Assembly (NCBI RefSeq): GCF_000020025.1
Contig: NC_010628.1
Coordinates: 1,770,001-1,802,000 of the forward strand
Direction of reading: 5' to 3'
Origin: Nostoc punctiforme PCC 73102
GTDB lineage: Bacteria; Cyanobacteriota; Cyanobacteriia; Cyanobacteriales; Nostocaceae
Length of the DNA stretch: 32,000 bases
The translations under genes and the position numbers were made by a program. Shown here piece by piece: positions 2 through 21,809 of this stretch (positions within the stretch are counted from its first letter, which is position 1; every line of letters begins with the position of its first letter). Under the pieces are notes generated by a model that did not search any database, was not told the DNA's origin, and saw only the letters and a list, made by a program, of their open reading frames with translations.

Positions 2-831
2 AGCGTCCGCCACCCATCTGGTGGATGCGTTTGCCGTGCCTGTGCTACCCCTGACTTTCACCCAGGTGATGCGGGTGTTGCCATTGGTTCAATTGTAGAA
101 ACTGTGGGTCAGGTTATCCCTGGCACTGTCGGTTCTGATATCAATTGTGGAATGCGCCTGCACGTTGCTGATTTGACAATCGATGAATTCATGGCAAAGC
201 GCGACCAATTCGTCGAAAAAATGAAGGGGGATTACTTCTTTGGTACGCGTGATGTGACAATGACTGCTGAGGCAATGCGATCGCTATTTCAATACGGAAT
301 TCCTGGTTGGCTGGATGCCATGCTAGATCGGCCTACCGGGAGTGTAGTCAAATCTGATTTGCAGCAACTTACCCAAGAGAGCGAACGCATCTTCTTAGGT
401 GGTTCAATGGATGGTAACTGGAAACTCGCGCCTGAAGAATTGGTTCCCGATGCTGGAATAGTACGCGATGGTGGACTGGCAACTATTGGCGGCGGCAATC
501 ATTTTGTAGAAGTTCAGCGAGTTGATAAAGTCGAAAATCGCCCACTTGCCCACGCTTGGGGAGTGCGCGAGGGACAACTAGCTTTTATGATTCACTCTGG
601 TTCTAGAAACGTGGGTAAGTATATCGGGGGAATGTGGCGAGATAAAGCTAAGGCGACTTGGCAAAAAGGTCTGAAGTACCCTGATTCTCAGATTTTTCCT
701 CTCTCTACCCATTCTCACCCCGAATTAGTCGCCAGTTACCTGCAAGCTGAGGCAACTGCTGCTAACTATGCTTTTATTAATCGCCTGCTATTAGCAGAAC
801 TGCTACGTCTGCGTTTGCGAGAAGTATATAA
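2..831 (+). pseudogene. rtcB: RtcB RNA ligase, 5' part (open at left window edge, interrupted by an IS insertion)
   Basis: Frame 2 is open from nt 2. The translation contains RtcB-type segments PDFHPGDAGVAIGS, GSDINCGMRLH and GGGNHFVEVQ. RtcB-like sequence ends at ...LRLREVY (nt ~830), after which the frame runs into IS terminal sequence (NAIRFS*). Confidence 0.85.
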
Positions 832-2425
832 TGCAATACGGTTCAGTTAAGGCTCAAAGTGATGTAAATTAGGCATTGTTCCCAAGAATAGAAATTAAGT
901 ATCGTGCATCTGAGGGATTTTTCGTTGGTGTCTCCTGAGATACAAAACGCTGATTTGCTCAAAGCAATCGAGATGGCTATTCCAGCAACAGCAATTGAAC
1001 AGGCGATAAGCCTGCGGCATGGCTTCGCTTACCGCTAATATCCAAACTCAAGAAGAACGCAAACGATCATTACCAGCACAATTGGTGGTAAGCCTTGTAA
1101 TTGCAATGAGTCTGTGGTCAAAAGACTCGATGCGGGATGTATTGAAGAATTTGATTGATGGACTCAGTGAGGCATGGCTTAAGGTTGGTAAATACTGGCG
1201 AGTAGCTTGTAAGTCAGCCATTACACAAGCCCGGCAGCGATTAGGTGCAAGGGTAATGTGCAAATTATTTCATCAGCTAGTAAAACCAATGGCGACACAG
1301 GAGACATTAGGAGCGTTTCTCCAAGAACTAAGAATTGTAGTCATTGATGGCAGCTGTTTTGATGTTCCAGACAGCGATGAAAATGCGAGAGTTTTTGGTC
1401 GTCCTGGTAGCCGTCCTGGGACAAAAGCCGCGTTCCCTAAAGTTAGACTAGTATATTAGTAGAAGCAGGAACACATATAATATTTGATGCACTGATGTGG
1501 CCGTATCGCATCGGAGAGCGAGTACGAGCATTAAGATTATTACGTTCGGTCACACCAGGAATGTTGTTGATGTGGGATAGAGGATTACATTCCTACGCAA
1601 TGGTACAAGCAACAGTAACCAAGGGATGCGATTATTTAGGCAGAATACCAGCCAATATCAAATTTATTGCCGAAAAACCCTTAGAAGACGGCTCTTATTT
1701 ATCATGGATTTACCCATCGGGAAAGCTACGAAAAAAAGCTAGTCAGCCAATACTTGTACGCATCATTGAGTATACAATTGAGCATCCTGACAATCCAACC
1801 GAACAACTGACATATCGCTTAATTACTAGTTTATTAAACATTGAGAAATTTCCTGCCGAGTTGTTGGCGAGGGAATACCATCAGCGATGGGAAGTAGAAA
1901 ATACCATTGATGAGTTGAAAATACATCTTCTAGGGCGAAAAACTCATGTCCGTTCCCAAAAACCACGAGAGGTTGTGCAAGAAGTATATGCTTGGTTATT
2001 AGGACATTGGACAGTACGATTATTAATGTTTCAAGCTGCAACCAGTGCCGGAGTTGCTCCATTACGTCTTAGTTTTACCGGAACTTTACGAGTTATCCGT
2101 CGTGCTGTACCTAAGTTTCAACGTCTTAACTCTCAAGATTTGCCCCTTTTTTTGAGTGGTTGATCATAGAGATTCTGGATACATTGTTACCTGAGCGGCT
2201 TCATCGGTGTAACCCCAGGGTTGTGAAAAAACCTGTATCAAAGTTTCGCTCCAAAAAACCAAGCCACAGAGGCACTGGACAGCGAGTTGAGGCTCCTAAT
2301 TTCCATATCATTAATAACGCTTTCAGCTTTAACTTAACCGTATTGGTATATACTTAACCGTATTAGTATATACTTAACCGTATTGGTATATACTTAACCG
2401 TATTGGTATATACTTAACCGTATTG
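832..2425 (+). mobile_element. IS4-family insertion sequence (core 834-2345) plus amplified right-junction copies, inserted in rtcB
   Basis: The terminal inverted repeats match at 23/26 positions: CAATACGGTTCAGTTAAGGCTCAAAG (834-859) versus the reverse complement of 2320-2345, CAATACGGTTAAGTTAAAGCTGAAAG. The direct repeat GTATATA(A) at 824-831 and 2426-2433 restores a continuous rtcB frame (REVY|KDVE). An IS4-type transposase is encoded inside. Confidence 0.8.
904..2357 (+). pseudogene. IS4-family DDE transposase broken by at least 3 frameshifts
   Basis: Four pieces in frames 1/2/1/3 (904-1038, 1019-1459, 1459-2163, 2145-2357) together give one transposase. It has an IS4 N-terminal domain (AIPATAIEQAIS / QEERKRSLPAQLVVSLVIAMSLW). 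DDE motifs lie in VVIDGSCFD, LLMWDRGL and the Y-x2-R-x3-E-x6-K signature YHQRWEVENTIDELK. The C-terminal part reads NPRVVKKPVSKF. The last shift lies in the T7 run at ~2147-2153. Confidence 0.75.
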
Positions 2426-2432
2426 GTATATA
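2333..2432. repeat. 5 x 20-bp perfect-period tandem repeat CTTAACCGTATTGGTATATA (IS right tip + target-site duplication)
   Basis: Copies start at 2333, 2353, 2373, 2393 and 2413. The only difference is G->A at 2365. Each unit is the 13-nt IS right terminus (CTTAACCGTATTG) followed by the 7-nt target duplication (GTATATA). Confidence 0.95.
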
Positions 2433-2857
2433 AGGATGTGGAAGCACCTCTAATTTATGATTTGCCACATAACATCACCTTGCCAGAAGGTAAAGGATGG
2501 GTAACACGCAAGGGCGCTTGTCCCGCCCATGTAGGACAACCAGTGATTATCCCTGGTTCAATGGGTGCTTATTCCTATCTGATGGTGGGTAAAGGCAATC
2601 CAGCCTTTTGTAATTCAGCCTCACACGGGGCGGGAAGAATTCGTTCTCGCTTCGACCTCAATCGCAGAAGTGCATCTCAAAATGAGGCAGAACTGGCATT
2701 AACTGGGATAGACTGCATTACCTTGCGTGAAGAACGCCGCATTGAAGAAGCACCAGCCGCCTACAAACCGATTCAGTCTGTAATTGATGTGCAGGTTGAA
2801 GCAGAAATGGTGGACGTTGTGGCGCGATTGAGTCCAGTATTAACGTTTAAAGCGTAG
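2426..2857 (+). pseudogene. rtcB: RtcB RNA ligase, 3' part
   Basis: The translation VYKDVEAPLIYDLPHN...PGSMGAYSYLMVG...SASHGAGR...EEAPAAYKPI matches the RtcB C-terminal region, including the HGAGR active-site His region. It is in the same frame class as the 5' part, with a stop at 2855-2857. Confidence 0.85.
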
Positions 2858-2902: not shown

Positions 2903-3360
2903 TATTCCCTAATATTAGAATCGCATCTGTGAAGCTATGATAAATCCGTATAAATGCAATTAACGCATAAGCTTGATGATTATTTTGCAATCAGTTAGAT
3001 GGAATTTACCCAGTGTCATCAATGCTAGTTTTATCCCAATACGCTTGGGATAAGCCAGAAAGCCCTCGTATATAGACGCGATTTATCGCGTCTAAAAGAC
3101 TGATACGTTAGAGAAACGCGATAAATCGCCGTCCTGAAAGAGAATGTACTCGTCAATTATTCCTTGACAGACTACTATTCCCGACTTCTATGTACACCGT
3201 AGCCGTTTCGGGGAGAGGAATGGAAGTGGGGTAAAAAGTCATGCCACAAAACAAGAAATCAGTACTTTATGTATTTTTCTTTTTTCGTATGAAACTACCT
3301 AGCGTAGCCTGCCTTCGCAGGGGTACGCTATCGGCATTGCTTCTTTCTCTTCACTCGAGC

Positions 3361-3463
3361 AGAAAATAGGTTTAGCTCAGTGCTAAACCTACATATTTAG
3401 TGCTTAAGTAGACGTTTCAGATTAATTTAGACTGGCTTTTCTAGCAGTTCATCTTCCTATAGA
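3361..3463 (-). ncRNA. Candidate sRNA, array unit A
   Basis: Minus strand: GATACAGTCTATAGGAAGATGAACT...CTAAATTAAT...AGGTTTAGC-actga-GCTAAACCT-ATTTTCT (hairpin 3368-3390). Ends are approximate. Confidence 0.45.
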
Positions 3464-3493
3464 CTGTATCCAAATTTCTTGAAGACTTGTACA

Positions 3494-3594
3494 TAATAAA
3501 AGGCTTGGTTAAACCAAGCCTCTATATATACCAAGCATTTACTACACCAAGATTAATTTAGACTGACTCTTACTTTAGTTCATCTTCCTATAGG
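3494..3594 (-). ncRNA. Candidate sRNA, array unit B
   Basis: Minus strand: GATACATCCTATAGGAAGATGAACT...CTAAATTAAT...AGGCTTGGTT-t-AACCAAGCCT-TTTTATTAT (hairpin 3501-3521). Ends are approximate. Confidence 0.5.
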
Positions 3595-3642
3595 ATGTAT
3601 CTAAATATTCTGAAATCTGATATCACACTTCCTGGTTACTCT

Positions 3643-3747
3643 TTAAAAAAAGGTTTGGCTGTGAACCAAACCTCAATAATTGCTGTGCTTAACAACGTAC
3701 AAAATTAATTTAGTTCTACTCTCTATTACAGTTCATCATCCTAGAGG
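3643..3747 (-). ncRNA. Candidate sRNA, array unit C
   Basis: Minus strand: TATACACATCCTCTAGGATGATGAACT...CTAAATTAAT...AGGTTTGG-ttcacag-CCAAACCT-TTTTTTTT (hairpin 3651-3673). Ends are approximate. Confidence 0.5.
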
Positions 3748-4002
3748 ATGTGTATAAATATTCAGAAATTTGGTATTTCATGACTTGGTAAAAATCTTAA
3801 CTAATTTTTTGAAAAAATACACAAAAAATCTATCTAAAGTTATTCCTATTTAAAAATTTTTGGATTATGCTAAAGACTCTAATAACCAAGGTCGATTCTG
3901 ATATATCCCCTCTTTATTTTTTCTGGTCAATCCAGTGTATAATATAGTGCATCAATTTACTTCTACTCTGACAAAAGTCTATCTTTTACTTATAGTTTTT
4001 CT

Positions 4003-4032
4003 AAAAAAAGACCCTGGAATAATATCCAGGGT
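4003..4032 (-). terminator. Orphan intrinsic terminator inside the degenerate middle of the array
   Basis: ACCCTGGA-tattat-TCCAGGGT (4011-4032) is followed on the minus strand by CTTTTTTT (plus-strand A7 at 4003-4009). Only weak box-like sequence lies upstream on the minus strand (~4081-4115). Confidence 0.5.
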
Positions 4033-4475
4033 GCATACACGTTTTTCAGGCATTAACAGGCTGAATAATAACTTTGTAAAATAGTTATTTCTACTATCCA
4101 TAGAATGATACGAATATCGATCTATATATGGTATTGATGGTTTTTTGTTGCTTGTTCTATTGATATATAGTATTTAATAACACCAACATACATGTTTTGA
4201 TGAGCTTTTCTATTTCTTTAGGATAGTGTTCATCATTGTTTAGTATGATATGGATATATTATTAATAGGAAATTAGGGGGAATTTTGAACGTGATTTTTG
4301 ATTAATATTCATGCATCAAGTATGAAATCTAGGGTTGATATCCTGCAAGTACTCCGTTGAACAACTTGTAGATAGTCACCAATGCCTTAGAGAGGATGTG
4401 CGATAGGATATATGGGCTATTTTTTACTCACTAACTTGAAATATGTTGTATGTTTCAGTTGGTTACTGTCAGTCA

Positions 4476-4576
4476 CAAAAAAGGCATGGCTTTTAGCCAT
4501 GCCCTATATATACCAAGTGTTTACCATACCTTGCTAATTTATAATTACTTTGATTTCAGTTCATCCGTCTAGAGAG
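4476..4576 (-). ncRNA. Candidate sRNA, array unit E (most diverged 5' box)
   Basis: Minus strand: CTCTCTAGACGGATGAACT...TAAATTAGC...GGCATGGCT-aaa-AGCCATGCC-TTTTTTGTG (hairpin 4483-4503). Ends are approximate. Confidence 0.4.
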
Positions 4577-4603
4577 TGTTGACATATCCTAATGGTAGAC
4601 ATG

Positions 4604-4704
4604 AAAAAAGGTTTAGCACTCAGCTAAACCTTCATTGAAAGCAGTTATTCGACACACCAAAATTAATTTAGAGCTACTCTTAATTCTGGTCATCTTCCTC
4701 TAGG
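4604..4704 (-). ncRNA. Candidate sRNA, array unit F
   Basis: Minus strand: TATACATCCTAGAGGAAGATGACCA...CTAAATTAAT...AGGTTTAGC-tgagt-GCTAAACCT-TTTTTCAT (hairpin 4609-4631). Ends are approximate. Confidence 0.5.
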
Positions 4705-4902
4705 ATGTATACAATTTTTATAAAATCTGGTAACAAGCTCTATCGATAATATGAGAATTAGTTCAACCCCCTTTAGATAGATAATTTTTTCAATAGATGT
4801 GATTAAAAATAAAATTGATTGCGGATAAAATTAATCGCATTAAGGGACTAATTTAACAAAGCTTAAACAAAATTATTCTCAAGTTTTTGGTTGCATTAAA
4901 CT

Positions 4903-4920: not shown

Positions 4921-4994
4921 AACAATAGTAGCGATTTATCACATTAATTCTGATAGCTGAATCAAATTTCAATTTATCTTCTTTCCTTCTTCCT

Positions 4995-5125
4995 TTACGC
5001 TCTACCCTTCGGGAACGGCTTCGCCGAAAGCGTTCTTCTCCTTTGGAGACGTTACGCATAGCTTGCTTCGCCGTAGGGCTACAAGTCGGGAAACTGCAAG
5101 GGCGCAGTGGCTCCCCAACCTACGC
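4995..5125. repeat. Cluster of GC-rich small dispersed hairpin repeats
   Basis: 5046-5077 (GAGACGTTACGCATAGCTTGCTTCGCCGTAGG) matches 15117-15148 at 29/32. 5078-5114 resembles the 56-bp insert in the IS630 transposase (shared CAAGTCGGG..AAC...CGCA.TGGCTC). The block is a GC-rich island in AT-rich DNA. Confidence 0.7.
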
Positions 5126-5898
5126 CAGTTTTAGTTATTTAGCTTTAAACCAAGCATTTTGGCATTAAAGTTCAAAAATAGCTCTAGTAAATTATATGCA
5201 TTGGCTCAAAACATAAAAGAAAGGGTGTGAATTGAATGAGATGCTATAAAGCTGTATATTCTCTTTACTGTTGTTTTTGTAGTATAGAATACTCACAATA
5301 ATCTCAATAGAATAATCTACAAACAAATTTCTGTATAGGTGTGGCCCGTCGTAGACATCGCGCTATAGTAAAGTAGTAGATAGCCTTGGACAAAAGATGA
5401 AAAGCTGCTTCTTTTCAGGAACATCTCAAAAATAATCTCTTGGTTTGCTCACTTGTAAAAACCTATTCAATCGCGTCTGTACAATCAATCAAGAGTGTGT
5501 CTAAATTATATACAGTACGTAAATTACAGTACATATTTTAACAGTTAACAGCTTGAATTACTTATTTATTTAGTATCTTTAAAATCTCAAAGCATACACG
5601 GTTCAAGCCGATACTGTTACAAATAATCATCCGATCTTTTTACATAAATTTATGGTAAACTTATCAAAAAAAATATCCTGTGATTTTGCGTATAATCGAA
5701 AAGTATCCGCTAAACTTATAAGCTTGAGGTTTTCTTAACTCAGCAATTTTTCTGTGGGTAAGAATTATCAAATAGGCAAAAGTAAAACACATTAGCTAAT
5801 TCTAACTGAGTACTATTCCATAGGTTCGCGCGAAGCCTCGTCTGTATCTCCCTAATAGAGACAGACGAGGAATCATAATAAAATCTTCTGGAGAAGAG

Positions 5899-6354
5899 AT
5901 GTATTTGGCACATTCATTCATGAGTGATGAAAAGCAGCAAAACTCTCACCAGCCTTTGATTTTGGCAGTGGAAGACCATGATGATAGTCTTTTGCTGATT
6001 AGTTATGCTCTTGAGTTAATGGGTTGTAGATTTATTTGTCAAACAGATTGCTCTGCAACAGTGCTGGTGGCTAAAGAATATCAACCTGACTTAATTTTGT
6101 TGGATATTTTGTTACCAGGTCTTAGCGGTATCGATGTTGTGCGTCATCTAAAGCAAGAACCCTTAACTTCCAAAATTCCAGCGATCGCAGTCACAGCTTT
6201 AGCTACCACGGAGGATCGAGAGCGTATCCTTAAGGCAGGATTTGATGATTATATCAGCAAACCCTATATGATTGAGGACTTAGAGGCTATAATTCGCCGT
6301 GTATTGGGAGGAAAATTCTCTCCTTACTCAGCTTTTGAACTTTGTCAAGATTAG
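5899..6354 (+). CDS. Single-domain CheY-like response regulator
   Basis: Receiver motifs are present: ILAVEDHDD, DLILLDILLPGLSG, AVTAL and ISKPY. The ATG is preceded by GGAGAAGAG. At 151 aa there is no output domain. Confidence 0.9.
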   Translation: MYLAHSFMSDEKQQNSHQPLILAVEDHDDSLLLISYALELMGCRFICQTDCSATVLVAKEYQPDLILLDILLPGLSGIDVVRHLKQEPLTSKIPAIAVTALATTEDRERILKAGFDDYISKPYMIEDLEAIIRRVLGGKFSPYSAFELCQD

Positions 6355-9008: not shown

Positions 9009-9416
9009 TTAGCATAATATCCAATACTTGTTTAGCGTTGCCGTCATCTTGACATTAGGCAAGGTGAAAGGCTTGAGGATATATCCGGCTAGATTTAAGC
9101 TGTCAGCTTTCACTCGGTGTCGATCTTGATTTGAGGTTATCATTACAATTACAGGAGTTGCTCTTAAAGCTAATTATTGGGATAATTCGCTGCCACTTAC
9201 CTTTGGCATATTCAAATCTAGGAAAAGCAAATGTTACTCGGCAGTAACTTTCGGAGGCTGTCTGTCATTGCCACACAACATTATTAGTGCCTGTAGCCCA
9301 TAACTAGTAAGGTGAATACGGTCAATAATATTAACTTTCTTTAATGCCTGTAAGACATTCATCAAATCAACTTCGTTGTCCTCCACTAGTAGTGTGTTAA
9401 TCAGTCTTTATGGCAT
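9009..9416 (-). pseudogene. Rcp/CheY-like receiver-domain gene with three in-frame TAA stops
   Basis: My own minus-strand translation gives 136 codons: MP*RLINTLLVEDNEVDLMNVLQALKK...E*HLLFLDLNMPKVSGSELSQ*LALRATPVIVMITSNQD...GYILKPF...KYW. Stops are at 9408-9410, 9234-9236 and 9174-9176. There is no frameshift, and the acidic pair, phospho-Asp, T/S and K positions are all retained. Confidence 0.75.
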
Positions 9417-10495
9417 TTACTTGCATTAAATTTAGTCTGTTGTATCCTTAATATGATTAATTTGACAGACTATTGAAATTAAACTTCTAGCAAACTACCA
9501 ATGGCTTTCAAAAAACTAGCAATTAAAAAATCGAAACCTACTGCTCTAGACACAACAGACAGAACTGATATAAAGTAAAATAAAATACTTTACTAAGCTT
9601 AAACCAATTGTAAATGAGCGATCAAGTGACCGTCGTCAGCCATTGGTGAGAGTTGCATAACATTATCCTGTACCATAAGCTTGAGCAGTTTTAACCATTG
9701 ATTTGGTTAGACCAGGTAAATAAGAAAGTACTTCCTATACCTATTTGTGAACACAAGTATTCCTACCTTCTAGAATTTCAACAATTTTCTTAACAATCGC
9801 AAACTTTCACAGTTTGGAAAATTACCAAGACCTCCTGGCAAACTTTAGGAAGAATACCAAGCCCTTCTAAGCCTTTTGGCATTAAAAAAATTACTCGCCC
9901 ACTTTGGCTGCTAAAGGGCTTAACTTTTGAGCCATAAGTCCTCCAGCATTTGGGCGCACGAGTAATTACCCTGTGCAGTTGTGGTTGAATTCCTTTTGAA
10001 ATTGCCCACCATCGAGCCTGACTTTTCACGCGATAGGGAAAAGAAGAGGCGAAACCTAAACCCCTAGCCCCCAAACCTTGTAGGGTTGGGGGAGAATTTA
10101 AAACCTCTTTTCTATAAGGAAAAAGGAATGGAAGTGAGGTTTTCCAGATCCCGTTAAAAGTCAGAACTTCGTCCATTTGAGTAAGCTTTGTTCAAAGCTT
10201 TGTACAAGATAATAGGAAATAATGAATGGAACATGGCAACTAAAAGCTGAATTCTGAACAAGGGAGAGCAATTTGGCATTTGTCTCAATATTTCATACTT
10301 TTTGTGCAAGTATCTATATATCTCCAGCTAGATATGTCCTCTATCTAAATATCAAAAAAGAGGAAATTTATTATTTCTAGCGATGGATGCAGACTGGTTA
10401 AAATATCATCTATGTTTGGTTTGGGGAAATAGCAGAAAGCGCTAACGAAAGGTAATATTTTGAAAGATGCAAACAGCATAAGAGCGAGTGTAGCG

Positions 10496-16787: not shown

Positions 16788-19700
16788 ATGGCTAATGCAG
16801 TTTTCAATCTATCTGACCTCAATGGCAGCAACGGCTTCGTAATTAACGGTATTAATACTTATAATTTCTCAGACGGCTCGGTCAGCAGTGCAGGGGACAT
16901 CAACGGCGACGGCTTTGATGATTTGATTATCGGGGCATTGAGTCCCTACCTCAATGGTCTGTTTAATCCTGGGTCAAGCTACGTGGTTTTTGGCAGCAGT
17001 AGTGGCTTTGGAGCTAGTCTCAACCTCTCCTCACTCAATGGCAGTAACGGCTTTGTAATTAACGGCATTGGCATTGATGAGCTTGGCAACTCACACGTTT
17101 CCGTCAGCAATGCGGGGGACATCAACGGTGACGGTATTGATGACCTGATTATCGGGGCAATACTTGCCGACCCCAATGGTCAGTTAAATGCCGGGTCAAG
17201 CTATGTGGTCTTCGGCAACAGCAGTGGGTTTGGAGCCAGTCTTAACCTCTCCTCACTCAATGGCAGCAACGGTTTTGTAATTAACGGCATTGATAGCGGT
17301 GACTACTCAGGTTTTTCCGTCAGCAGTGCAGGGGACATCAATGGTGACGGCATCGATGACCTGATTATCGGGGCATATAGTGCCAACCCCAACGGTCAGA
17401 CCTTTGCTGGGCAGAGCTACGTGGTGTTTGGTAGCAGTAGTGGATTTGGAGACAGTCTTAATCTCTCTTCCCTGAATGGCAGCAACGGTTTTGTGATTAA
17501 TGGCACCGATCGTTATGAGCGCTCAGGCATTTCCGTCAGCAGTGCGGGAGACATTAATAACGACGGCATCGATGACCTGATTATCGGGGGATTCCGTGGC
17601 GAACCCTTCACAGAGAGGTATTCTGGGGAGAGCTACGTGGTCTTTGGTAGCAGTAGCGGGTTTGGAGACAGTCTCAATCTCTCCTCACTCAATGGCAGCA
17701 ACGGCTTTGTAATTAAAGGCTTTGTAAGTAATGCTAATAATTTTAGATATAACGACTCAAGCATTTCCGTCAGCAGTGCGGGGGATATCAATGGCGACGG
17801 CATCGATGACCTGATTATCGGGTCATATAGTGCCAACCCCAACGGTCAGTCACGTGCTGGGGAGAGCTATGTGGTGTTTGGTCGCAGTAGTGCGTTTGAA
17901 GCCAGTTTCAACCTCTCCTCACTCAATGGCAGCAACGGCTTTGTAATTAACGGCATTAATGCGGGTGACTTCTCAGGCAGTTCCGTCAGCAGTGCGGGGG
18001 ACATCAACGGTGACGGCATTGATGACCTGATTATTGGGGCATACGGTGCCGACCTCAACGGTCAGGAGTTTGCTGGGTCAAGCTACGTGGTCTTTGGTCG
18101 CAGCAGCGGCTTTGGTGCAGGCTTCAACCTTTCATCTTTGGATGGCAGCGAGGGTTTTGTAATTAACGGCATTGATGAACGTGACGAGTCAGGCATCTCC
18201 GTCAGCAGTGCGGGGGACATTAATGGCGACGGTTTCGACGACCTGATTATCGGCGCAAAAAATGCCTACTCTAACGATCGGTCAGCTGGCGGGTCAAGCT
18301 ACGTGGTCTTTGGTTTTGCATCTCCTACGCCTACTAATAAACCTCCTGTGGCGGTTAATGATACCGCTACCACCGACGGAGACACTGCCGTTAATATAGA
18401 GGTCTTAGCCAACGACAGCAATTCCCTAGCGGTGACGGCTGTTAATGGCAGGACAGTTGTTGTTGGCACTGCCATTACCCTGAGTTCTGGTGCTTTAATT
18501 ACCCTTAATGCTGATGGCAGCTTTACCTACGACCCAAATGCTAAATTTGATAGTTTGGTTATCGGTGAAAGTGGCACTGATAGCTTTATATACACTGCCA
18601 GCAATGGCAGCTTGACCAATACAGCTAGCGTCAATTTGACTATTAACGGAGTCAATGATGCACCCAAGGTTGCTTCAGTTTTTAATCTCTCCTCGCTCAA
18701 TGGTAGCGACGGCTTTGTGATTAACGGCATTAATAGCGGTGACAATTCAGGCTTTTCCGTCAGCAGTGCCGGGGATATCAACGGCGACGGCTTTGATGAC
18801 CTGATTATTGGCGCAAATGATGCTGACCCCAATGGTCAGGATGATGCCGGGTCAAGCTACGTGGTGTTTGGCAGCAGTAATGGATTTGAAGCCAGTCTTA
18901 ATCTTTCATCTTTAAATGGCAGCAATGGCTTTGTAATTAACGGCATTGATGCGGATAACAGTTCAGGCTTTTCCGTCAGCAGTGCTGGGGACATCAACGG
19001 CGACGGCTTTGACGACCTGATTATCGGGGCAATACTTGCCAGCCCCACCGGTAAGCCTTTTGCCGGGGAAAGCTATGTGGTGTTTGGCAGCAGTAATAAA
19101 TTTGGAGCCAGTTTTAATCTTTCATCTTTAAATGGCAGCAACGGCTTTGTAATTAACGGTATTGATGATGGTGACTTCTCAGGCAGATCCGTCAGCAGTG
19201 CGGGGGACATCAACGGCGACGGCTTTGACGACCTGATTATCGGGGCAAGTGATGCTTCCCCCAAGGATGGGTACGGGTCTTCAAATATCGGGCAGAGCTA
19301 CGTGGTGTTTGGCAGTAGTAGTGCGTTTGGAGCCAGTCTCAATCTGTCATCTTTGGATGGCAGTAACGGCTTTGTAATTAACGGCATTAATGAAAGTGAC
19401 AGATCGGGCGGTTCCGTCAGCAGTGCGGGAGACATCAATGGCGACGGCTTCGATGACCTGATTATCGGCGCAACTGGTGCACGTCAGGACAGAGCTGGGG
19501 AGAGCTACGTGGTGTTTGGCAGCAGCAATGGGTTTGCAGCTAGTTTTAATCTTTCATCTTTGGATGGCAGCAACGGCTTTGTAATTAAAGGCATTGATGA
19601 ACTTGACGACAATAATATAAGTTATGATTTAGGTAACTCCGTCAGCAGTGCGGGGGACATCAACAGTGATGGCATCGATGACCTGATTATCGGGGCATTG

Positions 19701-21809
19701 CGTGCCGATGCCAACGGTCAGGATAGAGCCGGGCAGAGCTATGTAGTCTTTGGCAGCAGTAATGGATTTGGAGCCAGTTTTAACCTCTCTTCCCTGAATG
19801 GCAGCAACGGCTTTGTAATTAACGGCATTGATATTCTTGATTACTCAGGCTCCTCCGTCAGCAATGCGGGGGACATTAACGGCGACGGCTTCGATGACCT
19901 GATTATCGGGGCATACGGTGCCGATCCCAACGGTCAGGATAGAGCCGGGGAGAGCTACGTGGTCTTTGGCAGCAGCAGTGGGTTTGGAGCCAGTCTTAAT
20001 CTCTCGTCTCTTAATGGCAGCAACGGCTTTGTGCTTAACGGCATTGATACTTATGACAGATCGGGCAGTTCCGTCAGCAATGCGGGGGACATCAACGGTG
20101 ACGGCTTCGACGACCTGATTATCGGGGCACCTAATGCCTCCCCCAACGGCCAGGACAAAGCTGGGGAGAGCTACGTGGTCTTTGGCTTTGGAACGCTGGC
20201 TACTACCAACGAAGATACTGCCGTGACTATTCTTACTAGCAACATTCTACGTAGATATACAGATGCAGATGGTAATACATTGAGCATTAACAACTTCACT
20301 AACCCCACTAACGGCACACTAACACTCAACGACAATACTACTCCAAGCAACCCCAGTGACGACTTCTTCATCTACACCCCCAATGCCAACTTCAACGGCA
20401 CTGACAGCTTCACTTTCACTGTCGCTGACGGCAATGGCGGCAACACTACAGGTACTTTTAATCTCAACGTCAAACCTGTCAACGATGCACCCATTGCCGT
20501 CAATGATACTTTGACTGCTGGTTTTAATACTAGTACTACTATCCTTGCTAGTACTCTACTAGCTAATGATACCGACATTGATAACAGTAACCTCCGCATT
20601 ACTGCTGTAAGTGGTGCAACTAATGGTACTGCTGTGCTAAATGATAACGGCACTTCGGGCAACTCGGCGGATGATTTTGTGGTGTTCACCCCATTTAATG
20701 GGTTGAGTGGCAATGCCAACTTCAACTACACCATTAGCGATGGTAGCCTGACTAGTACTGCTACAGTTGCGATCGCAGTTGGCACTAAGATTACTGGCAC
20801 TAACCAAAACGATACCATTTCTGGCACTCCAGGAAATGACGCGATCGCTGGTGGCAAGGGCAATGATATTCTCACAGGCTTTGCGGGTAATGATACTTTT
20901 GTCTTCCGTCTTGGTGATGGGAACGACACGATCACTGATTTTGCTGGAATAGGTATTGGCTCAAATCCATCAGCAACGGTGATTACGCAACTGGATACAT
21001 TGCAATTTATCGGTAGTGGTTTAACTGCCCGAAATCTGCAACTTACTCAAAATGGTAATAACTTAGAACTCATCTTTTCAGATGCAGCTTCTACCAAAGT
21101 TACTCTGCAAAACTTTCAATTAGAAAATCTGGATAATTTGCCAGCAACTTCTTCACGATCGGCTATTGGTAATATCCTGTTTGATGGACAAACCACTATA
21201 ACTGACAGTTTTGATGTCTTCAATGCCAACTCCACTCAAACTAATCTCTTTAACAAGAACACCGTCACCTTCCTGAATGACCTTAACAATAACGTTGCAG
21301 GTTTTGATAACTCCAATGATGCGATTAATGGTCAAGGAGGTAACGACATCATCAATGGTAATAGTGGAAATGACCTATTACGGGGCGGTGAAGGCGATGA
21401 TATTCTCATCGGTGGAGAAGGCAATGATACTGTTGTGGGTGGCAAAGGCAATGATGTTCTTGTCGGTGGTGTCGGTGCTGACCTTTTCCTTTACAACAGC
21501 AATGCTGACTTTGTTGGTGTTGATGCAATCGCTGACTTTAAAAGCAGCGAAGGTGACAAGATTGTACTGAGTAAGACTATCTTTAGTGCAATTACTTCTG
21601 CTACCGGAAATGGTTTTAGTAACACCAGTGATTTTCAAATCACTAGTTCAGCAGCGAGTAGCACGGCAAAAATTGTCTACAATTCTGTGAGTGGTGAGTT
21701 GTTCTACAACCAAAATGGCAACGCGGCTGGTTTTGGTAGCGGTGGTCTATTTGCGACTCTAACTGGTGCGCCAACTCTCACTGCATCTAATTTTGTACTG
21801 CAAGCATAG
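16788..21809 (+). CDS. Giant secreted FG-GAP (integrin-alpha-like) double-propeller / cadherin-like / RTX calcium-binding protein, probable T1SS substrate
   Basis: An AAGGAG sequence lies 11 nt upstream of the ATG. There are 14 FG-GAP repeats (..[20 protein letters not shown]..SYVVFG..) in two blocks of 7. Beta-sandwich modules are delimited by VNDAP. RTX nonapeptides include [19 protein letters not shown] and [45 protein letters not shown]. There is no N-terminal signal peptide. Confidence 0.9.
16800..18315 (+). repeat. Intragenic ~216-234-bp tandem repeats x7 (first FG-GAP propeller)
   Basis: DNA-level reiteration is visible, for example CTCAATGGCAGCAACGGCTTTGTAATTAACGGCATT and GACATCAACGG(C/T)GACGG recurring once per unit. 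Confidence 0.9.
18679..20190 (+). repeat. Intragenic ~216-225-bp tandem repeats x7 (second FG-GAP propeller)
   Basis: The unit is the same as in the first block. Both blocks end in the YVVFGF motif. Confidence 0.9.

Follow-up and report, generated by a model that had tools for sequence, protein, structure and literature searches.

A tandem array of predicted RF02596-family small RNA genes with a shared promoter box in Nostoc punctiforme

Five co-oriented units in a gene-free gap

We analyzed a stretch of 32,000 nucleotides (nt) from Nostoc punctiforme PCC 73102 (contig NC_010628.1, positions 1,770,001 to 1,802,000), in the following referred to as the window. A 3-kb gap in the window is free of genes, with the gene rtcB, split by an IS4-like element, on one side and a gene for a single-domain response regulator on the other. 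This gap is occupied by a tandem array of short units on the minus strand. A preliminary description, made from the letters alone, had reported five such units, each composed of a conserved box and a terminator, and had proposed them as a family of small RNAs (sRNAs). Reading the minus strand between 3000 and 5200 and scanning for repeats, we confirmed five co-oriented units at essentially the reported positions. In each of them the conserved box is followed 15–17 nt further on by CTAAATTAAT, then by a variable stretch, a GC-rich hairpin and a T-run. The repeat scan groups the five copies into one family (D2) with start-to-start spacings of 131, 153, 828 and 129 nt. Named by RNA type as explained below, the order of the sRNAs is A-128-B-830-E-152-F-123-G, the numbers being start-to-start distances in nt.

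Allowing up to three mismatches, the box CTNTAGGANGATGAAC occurs nine times in the 32-kb window, compared with 2.64 ± 1.68 times in shuffled sequences (0 of 100 shuffles reached nine). Seven of the nine occurrences are located on the minus strand of the array intergenic region and correspond to the five units and two decayed copies (4243-4228 and 4776-4761). Between 2800 and 6000 we detected 8 terminator-like sites where 1.9 ± 1.4 were expected, six of them on the minus strand within the array. Coordinates, spacing, terminators and box enrichment therefore bear out the five-copy array as first described. It had also been noted correctly that the units hold no conserved open reading frame (ORF): the ATG-AAC of the box runs into a stop after 1–5 further codons in four copies and after 26 codons in copy A. 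The 8-nt palindrome that had been ascribed to the box variants is absent, since CCTCTAGG and CCTAGAGG are not palindromes and only the outer CCT/AGG is symmetric.

Assignment of the units to the family RF02596

The preliminary description had matched the units to no known sRNA and regarded them as candidates for a novel one. This view had to be given up after comparison with Rfam. The single above-threshold Rfam match in the whole window is RF02596 (cyano_het_sRNA) at 3648-3700, i.e. in unit E, with 36.8 bits against a gathering score of 35.7 bits. At relaxed thresholds each of the five units aligns through its 3’ ~55 nt with the whole RF02596 model, and the scores of units F, A, B and G lie below the gathering score (Table 1). 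These sub-threshold units are linked to passing members of RF02596 through a covariance model (R1), which we built from 56 units, and through the orthology of the arrays. In other genomes only G and E types pass the RF02596 threshold, among them the G-type units of other Nostoc. The predicted RNAs of the window are 53–58 nt long and consist of a short 5’ region and an intrinsic terminator hairpin, as in RF02596. The 5-bp 5’ hairpin of the RF02596 model is weakly formed in the window copies, with non-canonical pairs in the alignment.

None of the papers found by our literature search names RF02596. In the study of the predicted sRNA 4547237r of Nostoc PCC 7120, the oligonucleotide NC-7-6 was employed both for Northern blots and for primer extension (Table S1, PMC4734099), and its sequence is exactly reverse-complementary to the segment GGAUUUAUAGAGAGGUUUGG.GGUGAGCCAA of the RF02596 consensus. 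RF02596 therefore corresponds to 4547237r. This sRNA was described as a ~51-nt transcript with homologues in heterocystous strains only, and its start was determined by differential RNA sequencing (dRNA-seq, 8 reads) and primer extension (Brenes-Alvarez et al. 2016, Front Microbiol 7:48, PMC4734099). Its Northern signal increases with culture density, in stationary phase and upon prolonged nitrogen deficiency; it was detected in nitrate-grown stationary cultures and was also assayed in a hetR mutant (Fig 4C legend, PMC4734099).

Judged from these alignments, the units of the window are paralogues (types A, B, E, F and G) of the known family RF02596: the observation is real and the family is not new. 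Unit G is the apparent diverged orthologue of 4547237r. The window genes and 4547237r have in common the size, the terminator, the promoter box upstream of the mapped start and the confinement to heterocystous cyanobacteria. The paper and the Rfam model have a single ~51-nt sRNA, where we find a conserved tandem array with five or six diverged paralogues. The Rfam threshold is not reached by types A, B and F, and the described type G is not the most conserved one, which is type F. In the open-access literature we found no description of the array or of a shared promoter (subscription papers were beyond this search), and a search by sequence string gave no match. Likewise, the oligonucleotides for NsiR8 and 4547237r had no match in the fetched loci. 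The conserved array, its fixed order, the type-specific 5’ segments and the shared promoter architecture appear to be undescribed in the searchable papers.

The conserved box as a probable promoter element

The preliminary description had placed the box at the 5’ end of an RNA of ~100 nt and had taken the (T/G)ATACA next to it as the -10 element of a promoter belonging to each unit. However, the RF02596 model starts downstream of the box, 5–6 nt 3’ of TAAATTAAT in all five units, which would put TAAATT between about -12 and -7 and GATGAAC between about -36 and -30. Because the homologous mapped start lies about 6 nt after TAAATT, we assign the box to the promoter and not to the RNA: it is the predicted promoter at about -57 to -30, TAAATT is its putative -10 element, and the RNAs would be ~53–58 nt long. 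The ~100 nt of a module include the promoter DNA and divide into about 45–50 nt of promoter and 53–58 nt of RNA. A promoter for each unit is thus retained, but not the -10 element proposed for it. The sequence (T/G)ATACA lies within TTTGnAcACA, a conserved element; other genera have GACACA or GCACACA at this place, and there is no fit to TAnnnT.

A near-seed member of RF02596 (81.9 bits) is located on the metagenomic contig L180. Upstream of it we found TATCAG-N12-TTTGCACACATCCTCTAGGAAGATGCAT-N17-TAAATTA-N4-GGGATG, and what follows this arrangement directly is the sequence for which a 5’ end had been mapped in PCC 7120. The L180 member and the window units have the architecture TATCAG / TTTGCACACATCCTCTAGGAAGATG / N17 / TAAATTA in common, the start having been mapped in PCC 7120 only. 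In an unbiased sample of 124 distinct promoters, none of which matches the search pattern used below, the consensus reads TAtCA-N12-TTTGtA.ACA.cCTatAGgaAGATGA.cT ... TAAATTAatT. The spacing between GATGAnn and TAAATT is 17 nt in 162 of 189 cases, and the sequence of this spacer is variable. Within the 32-kb window a promoter weight matrix matches the five units only. The low matrix score of promoter E is due to its 18-nt spacer, which shifts the register; E-type units of other genera carry the same promoter as unit E. With a cutoff of at least 30 bits the matrix finds 222 sites in 65 sources, and all but one precede an sRNA body with terminator. The lone exception is a G-type body without its hairpin.

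Several known promoter and regulator motifs were considered for the box and rejected. GAAC followed by GTCTAA resembles a promoter of the extracytoplasmic function (RpoE-like) type; the GTC is not conserved in the unbiased promoter set. Measured against the E. coli sigma-E consensus, the distance from AAC to TCTAA in the window promoters is about 3 nt too short. In a comparison by eye, none of the NtcA, LexA, CRP, HLR1 and CopY-type boxes fits. Nor do the copies share a palindrome of the kind recognized by dimers: copy F alone has TCCTATAGGA in palindromic form, and there is no consistent symmetry. The outer arms CATCCT/AGGATG match in Anabaena-type copies, not in Nostoc.

Table 1. Predicted sRNA genes, their promoters and further units of the array, in window coordinates. 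Matrix, score of the promoter weight matrix; z, z-score of the fold.
Feature	Position	Strand	Elements	Scores
sRNA gene A (type A: GGUGUGUCGAAUAACUGCUUUC...)	4604-4658	-	predicted start G4658, terminator hairpin 4633-4607, T-run 4609-4604	RF02596 25.3 bits (4606-4658); R1 53.9 bits (4604-4660); hairpin -15.3 kcal/mol, z -3.25
Promoter of unit A	4665-4733	-	TTACCAG 4733-4727, box TTGTATACATCCTAGAGGAAGATGACC 4714-4688, 17-nt spacer, -10 TAAATT 4670-4665	matrix 64.6 bits
sRNA gene B (type B: GGUAUGGUAAACACUUGGUAUAUAU...)	4477-4530	-	hairpin 4505-4481, found in terminator scan	RF02596 25.0 bits (4479-4530); R1 62.5 bits; fold -20.5 kcal/mol, z -3.69
Promoter of unit B	4536-4586	-	box TATGTCAACACTCTCTAGACGGATGAAC 4586-4559, 17-nt spacer, -10 TAAATT 4541-4536	matrix 46.6 bits
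sRNA gene E (type E: GUACGUUGUUAAGCACAGCAAUUAU...)	3645-3700	-	hairpin 3674-3650	RF02596 36.8 bits (3648-3700); R1 37.4 bits; z -3.54
Promoter of unit E	3707-3758	-	box TTTATACACATCCTCTAGGATGATGAAC 3758-3731, 18-nt spacer, -10 TAAATT 3712-3707	matrix 18.6 bits
sRNA gene F (type F: GGUGUAGUAAAUGCUUGGUAUAUAUAG...)	3495-3548	-	hairpin 3523-3499	RF02596 28.3 bits; R1 75.1 bits
Promoter of unit F	3555-3622	-	TATCAG 3622-3617, box TTTAGATACATCCTATAGGAAGATGAAC 3605-3578, 17-nt spacer, -10 TAAATT 3560-3555	matrix 72.7 bits (best of the window)
sRNA gene G (type G: ...CGUCUACUUAAGCACUAAAUAUGUAGG...)	3361-3418	-	hairpin 3392-3366	RF02596 21.8 bits (3365-3413); R1 32.8 bits
Promoter of unit G	3424-3474	-	box TTTGGATACAGTCTATAGGAAGATGAAC 3474-3447, 17-nt spacer, -10 TAAATT 3429-3424	matrix 62.7 bits
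Sixth conserved gene, ~43-nt mini-RNA (about 4045-4003)	4003-4079	-	carries AUGCACCCUGGAUA, hairpin 4032-4011 (terminator scan)	
Decayed units in the gap between B and E	3954-4243	-	repeat families D3 and D5	

Conservation of the array across Nostocales

Sister genomes show the same synteny of rtcB, array and response regulator, with 91–100% identity over the array. We scanned one genome for each of 185,579 species with the pattern TAGGANGATGAACN{16,19}TAAATT; as the scan returns exact pattern matches only, absence elsewhere is weak evidence. It yielded 91 loci, of which 63 come from about 15 genera of Nostocales, including Nostoc, Tolypothrix, Calothrix, Cylindrospermum, Nodularia, Anabaena, Anabaenopsis, Sphaerospermopsis and Chrysosporum. 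The other 28 matches, in unrelated taxa, have neither an RNA body nor a terminator, and all genuine matches are from Nostocales. Each genome has one locus (62 contigs), a local duplication being the sole exception. Model R1 gave 415 matches in 65 sources; a locus has 2–7 units, which share one strand. We distinguish six types of RNA body, A, b, B, E, F and G. Read in the direction of transcription, they recur across genera in the order A-(b)-B-(E)-F-(G), type A orthologues being the first of the array in most of them. E-type units were missed in the first typing pass and recovered in the pass with the promoter matrix. On this sequence comparison, the whole array in its fixed order is older than the split of the sampled Nostocales genera.

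In each type, conservation across genera reaches at least 90% over the first 22–30 nt of the RNA, and the 17-nt spacer and the 3’ flank vary. Type F, which starts with GGUGUAGUAAAUGCUUGGUAUA, is nearly invariant across genera and is the best-conserved member of the family; among 53 distinct units drawn from many genera, the conservation of its 5’ ~24 nt amounts to 90% or more. Apart from the terminator hairpin, no consensus structure emerged. Single-sequence folds give a strong terminator (z -3.3 to -3.8) and at most a weak hairpin in the 5’ part. That the pairing of the hairpin is kept while its sequence differs had already been noticed between the window copies, and the homologous units agree: in 56 of them compensatory changes were found in 5 of the 10 pairs. 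In an alignment of the hairpin in 109 units, 96.5% of the cells are paired and 86 cells carry double changes, compared with 26 ± 3.7 in shuffles (0 of 500 as high). When the 3’ partners were slid by 1–3 columns, the paired cells dropped to 17–66%.

On contig L180, which is of Nostocales origin, the RF02596 unit is solitary (3871-3926, minus strand) and closely follows a protein-coding ORF that has its stop at about 4070 (minus strand). Since this unit stands alone and has the same promoter box, in the PCC 7120-like lineage the G-type gene has apparently moved out of the main array. The same contig carries an NsiR1 array of at least seven copies (9404-10090, plus strand) 5.5 kb away from the unit.

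Genomic neighborhood and possible targets

In 19 of the 63 loci a gene for a P1B-type ATPase lies downstream of the array on the same strand, and a gene for a small HMA chaperone usually accompanies it. The distance from the end of the last unit to the chaperone start codon is 270–415 nt in Nodularia, Anabaenopsis and Chrysosporum. In Nostoc, including the window, rtcB is located on the opposite strand between the array and the chaperone/ATPase operon, and in other genera the downstream gene is an arginase-family gene or encodes an unknown protein of 289 amino acids. In several genera (loci L031, L044, L053, L058, L062, L063, L080, L099) the array is placed between two upstream kinases and a downstream HMA copper chaperone with P1B-type ATPase. 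One of the two kinases, often present upstream, is a histidine kinase whose N-terminal domain is ethylene-receptor-like (Pfam ETR1_N). The combination of an ethylene-receptor-like domain with a copper pump is suggestive. We regard this association as a lead only, and a role in cis is unlikely because rtcB intervenes in Nostoc and other genera have other neighbors.

We used RNAduplex to pair the five seeds with the translation-start regions of all ORFs in the 63 loci, which gave nothing beyond chance: the median energy lay beyond the 5th percentile of all energies for 2 of 35 seed-cluster pairs, about the number expected by chance. For sRNA A, a duplex is predicted between its 5’ segment (4632-4658, minus strand) and the translation start of the adjacent response regulator gene (5899-6354), covering ribosome-binding site and start codon (5890-5914, plus strand).

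Comparison with NsiR1 and other sRNA sets

Heterocystous cyanobacteria have another tandem sRNA array, NsiR1 (RF02399), with 12 copies upstream of hetF in PCC 7120. In both arrays ~55–60-nt sRNA genes, each with its own promoter and terminator, stand in tandem, the copies diverge in sequence and the system is specific to heterocystous cyanobacteria. For comparison we assembled at least 120 NsiR1 loci from a metagenome scan. The 195 canonical NsiR1 promoters among the matches listed read TTaTCCGGA-N17-AGAAcA.ttaAtT directly before GGTAGATG, and 160 of these 195 contain TCCGGA, the DIF1 motif expected at about -35. The window array has AGATGAAC-N17-TAAATT where NsiR1 has TCCGGA-N17-AGAACA, and TCCGGA, which the preliminary description had already not seen at the array, has zero copies in the whole window. 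There is no cross-match between models of the two families: RF02399 does not match the five units even at E-values up to 10, and a profile hidden Markov model (nhmmer) made from the alignment behind R1 (A1) found no NsiR1 unit in 0.9 Mb of the listed NsiR1 loci. None of the five units has the sequence of NsiR1.1, of NsiR1.4 or of the Rfam consensus for NsiR1. In addition, the copies of NsiR1 are mostly near-identical, whereas those of the window are old paralogues with distinct 5’ segments. Neither the window, judged by its Pfam-annotated ORFs, nor the 10 kb on either side of the array in sister genomes contains hetF or a gene for a CHAT domain.

The common layout, together with one mini-unit that carries the 5’ core of NsiR1 (see below), could speak for the array being the NsiR1 array of this organism, i.e. 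heterocyst-specific, HetR-dependent, driven by DIF1 promoters and acting on hetF. This is contradicted on three defining features, namely the missing RF02399 match, the missing TCCGGA and the missing hetF, and we consider it very unlikely. A local tandem array of individually transcribed sRNA genes with own terminators, analogous to NsiR1 and distinct from it, is what had been proposed at the outset, and it is upheld here. A common origin with NsiR1 was considered and rejected, as local alignments of the NsiR1 5’ region to the type consensuses were not significant (B 589 of 5000 shuffles, F 890 of 5000) and only the mini-unit reached significance.

Sets of sibling sRNAs are known from other bacteria, such as LhrC1-5 of Listeria (LisR), Qrr1-5 of Vibrio (LuxO/sigma-54), PrrF1/2 of Pseudomonas (Fur) and OmrA/B of E. 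coli (OmpR). They comprise several paralogous genes, some of them in tandem, and each promoter has a site for the same regulator, which leads to co-induction. We know of no sequence relationship between these sets and the family in the window. The members of these sets share a seed, whereas the window paralogues differ in their presumed seed.

Alternative explanations

If each ~100-nt module were one sRNA with the box as its 5’ end and seed, preceded by (T/G)ATACA as -10 element, the box would be expected to be the most conserved part between paralogues, and this it is. The homologous RNA of PCC 7120, however, is ~51 nt long and its mapped start lies downstream of TAAATT. A fixed distance of 17 nt with a variable spacer is promoter geometry, the supposed -10 lacks TAnnnT in other genera, and every paralogue has its own conserved segment 3’ of TAAATT, so that we regard long RNAs of this kind as quite improbable. 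Action in cis is unlikely as well. The units could serve as leader or attenuator transcripts or as promoter-terminator insulators for their neighbors, often the copper chaperone and P-type ATPase operon, and both the 19 loci with this ATPase on the same strand and the short distance to the chaperone in three genera would suit such a role. It does not agree with the rtcB gene of opposite orientation that intervenes in Nostoc and in the window, with the different downstream genes in other genera, with the strong terminator that ends every unit or with the solitary member in an unrelated context on L180; moreover, it is the type-specific RNA sequence that is conserved, not just the hairpin.

The RNAs might also titrate a protein in the manner of CsrB or 6S RNA rather than pair with mRNAs. 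Two UGGUA/UGGUG motifs, separated by about 10 nt, are present in types B and F, and expression from multiple copies would suit titration. Types A, E and G are devoid of the motif, there is no candidate protein, and different conserved 5’ segments in five paralogues fit different targets better than one protein; we judge titration to be quite improbable, too. A dispersed mobile repeat (miniature inverted-repeat transposable element) or a recent functionless local amplification, the former named as an alternative already in the preliminary description, could account for the decayed copies within the array, and Nostoc genomes are rich in short repeats. Yet there is a single syntenic locus per genome in 62 contigs, apart from the one local duplication, the repeat scan shows no terminal inverted repeats and no target duplications were seen. 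With orthologous paralogues in fixed order across genera and selection visible on promoter, RNA 5’ segment and hairpin pairing, we give this possibility next to no weight, and the local array stands.

Proposed mode of action

The explanation that we consider probable is that the array comprises five sRNA genes of the RF02596 family which are autonomous and regulated together, each giving an RNA of ~55 nt from a promoter that contains the box. A unit promoter would consist of TATCAG, 12 nt, TTTGnAcACAnCCTnTAGGAAGATGAAC, exactly 17 nt and TAAATTA, and transcription would start at a G about 6 nt past TAAATTA. The resulting transcript of ~53–58 nt would have a first part of ~25–30 nt with at most a weak hairpin, followed by the GC-rich intrinsic terminator. 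One dedicated activator or sigma factor may recognize the box from -57 to -30 and switch on all paralogues together. Each paralogue would then act in trans by base-pairing through its own conserved 5’ segment, and a single signal could thereby release several different seeds.

Several observations weigh against this explanation. Four of the five units score below the RF02596 gathering score. The start used for the window is transferred by homology from one paralogue (type G) of PCC 7120, where it was mapped with 8 dRNA-seq reads and primer extension (PMC4734099). The -35 region (ATGAAC) fits no promoter class that we were able to verify, and the box is assigned to no known regulator. The target screen of neighboring genes stayed at chance level, so that the argument for pairing in trans comes from the anatomy of the units alone. 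Finally, the pairing of sRNA A with the response regulator gene (-17.6 kcal/mol) is equalled by 31 of 500 shuffled seeds and is a weak lead.

A more far-reaching interpretation is tentative and, in our opinion, rather doubtful: 4547237r might be the visible tip of an ancient Nostocales regulon, in which six paralogues (A, b, B, E, F and G) in fixed order, each behind the 28-bp box, respond through a dedicated factor to one stress signal with several seeds. The occurrence of the 28-bp box nowhere else in the loci examined would imply a dedicated transcription or sigma factor. The signal might be high culture density or long nitrogen starvation or, given the recurrent neighbors, might involve copper or the ethylene-receptor-like kinase. 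In one Nostoc clade the module would, as part of the same interpretation, also hold a constitutively promoted mini-RNA with the NsiR1 5’ core.

The outcome is a refinement of a known family and not a new kind of system. For annotation it means that RF02596 as built detects one or two of the five or six genes per array and misses type F. If the proposed explanation is true, NsiR1 is not the only conserved tandem sRNA system of heterocystous cyanobacteria, and this second one is controlled differently. The regulator could then be sought with the invariant promoter box as a handle, and the type-specific 5’ segments would serve as input for comparative target prediction.

Mini-gene, decayed copies and other features of the window

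Besides the five units, the region holds one conserved mini-gene and several decayed copies. In place of the box the mini-gene has a sigma70-like TTACAA (4079-4074)-17-TTAATG (4056-4051) upstream, a promoter assignment made by eye. The NsiR1 model scores 22.5 bits on 4003-4055, below its gathering score of 39, and the match between the 5’ part of the mini-RNA and the NsiR1 5’ core was equalled by 1 of 5000 shuffles. In the loci of 9 other Nostoc species the stem and the upstream 60 nt of the mini-gene are almost invariant and the loop is variable. In the gap between units B and E we found a box remnant, CTAAACAATGATGAAC, at 4243-4228 without -10 element or hairpin, and a promoter remnant, AGAGTAGAAGTAAATT, ending at 3954 (3954-3969, minus strand) without terminator; model R1 has no match to the decayed remnants in this gap. 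The decayed copies at 4228-4243, 4761-4776 and 3954-3969 (minus strand) indicate that units have been born and lost within the array.

The rtcB gene of the window (RNA ligase, 104-2857, plus strand) consists of two parts, 104-850 and 2423-2857, separated by an insertion of the IS4 family whose transposase ORFs lie at 1019-1459 and 1495-2163. In sister genomes rtcB is intact and encodes 479–487 amino acids. A 20-nt tandem repeat with five copies (ACTTAACCGTATTGGTATAT) is located at 2332-2432. GC-rich repeat-like stretches flank the array at about 3290-3345 and 5010-5130. A perfect 14-nt inverted repeat, GCGATTTATCGCGT / ACGCGATAAATCGC, with its arms 24 nt apart, lies at 3078-3129, and a related copy (ATAGTAGCGATTTATCA) is found upstream of the array at 4925-4945. 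Elsewhere in the window, an ORF of 1673 amino acids at 16788-21809 (plus strand) encodes FG-GAP, cadherin-like, Big_9 and RTX repeats. It is built from DNA repeats of ~216 nt (two blocks with about 6.8 copies each) and is preceded by a DUF4915 gene and an Omp85/POTRA gene.

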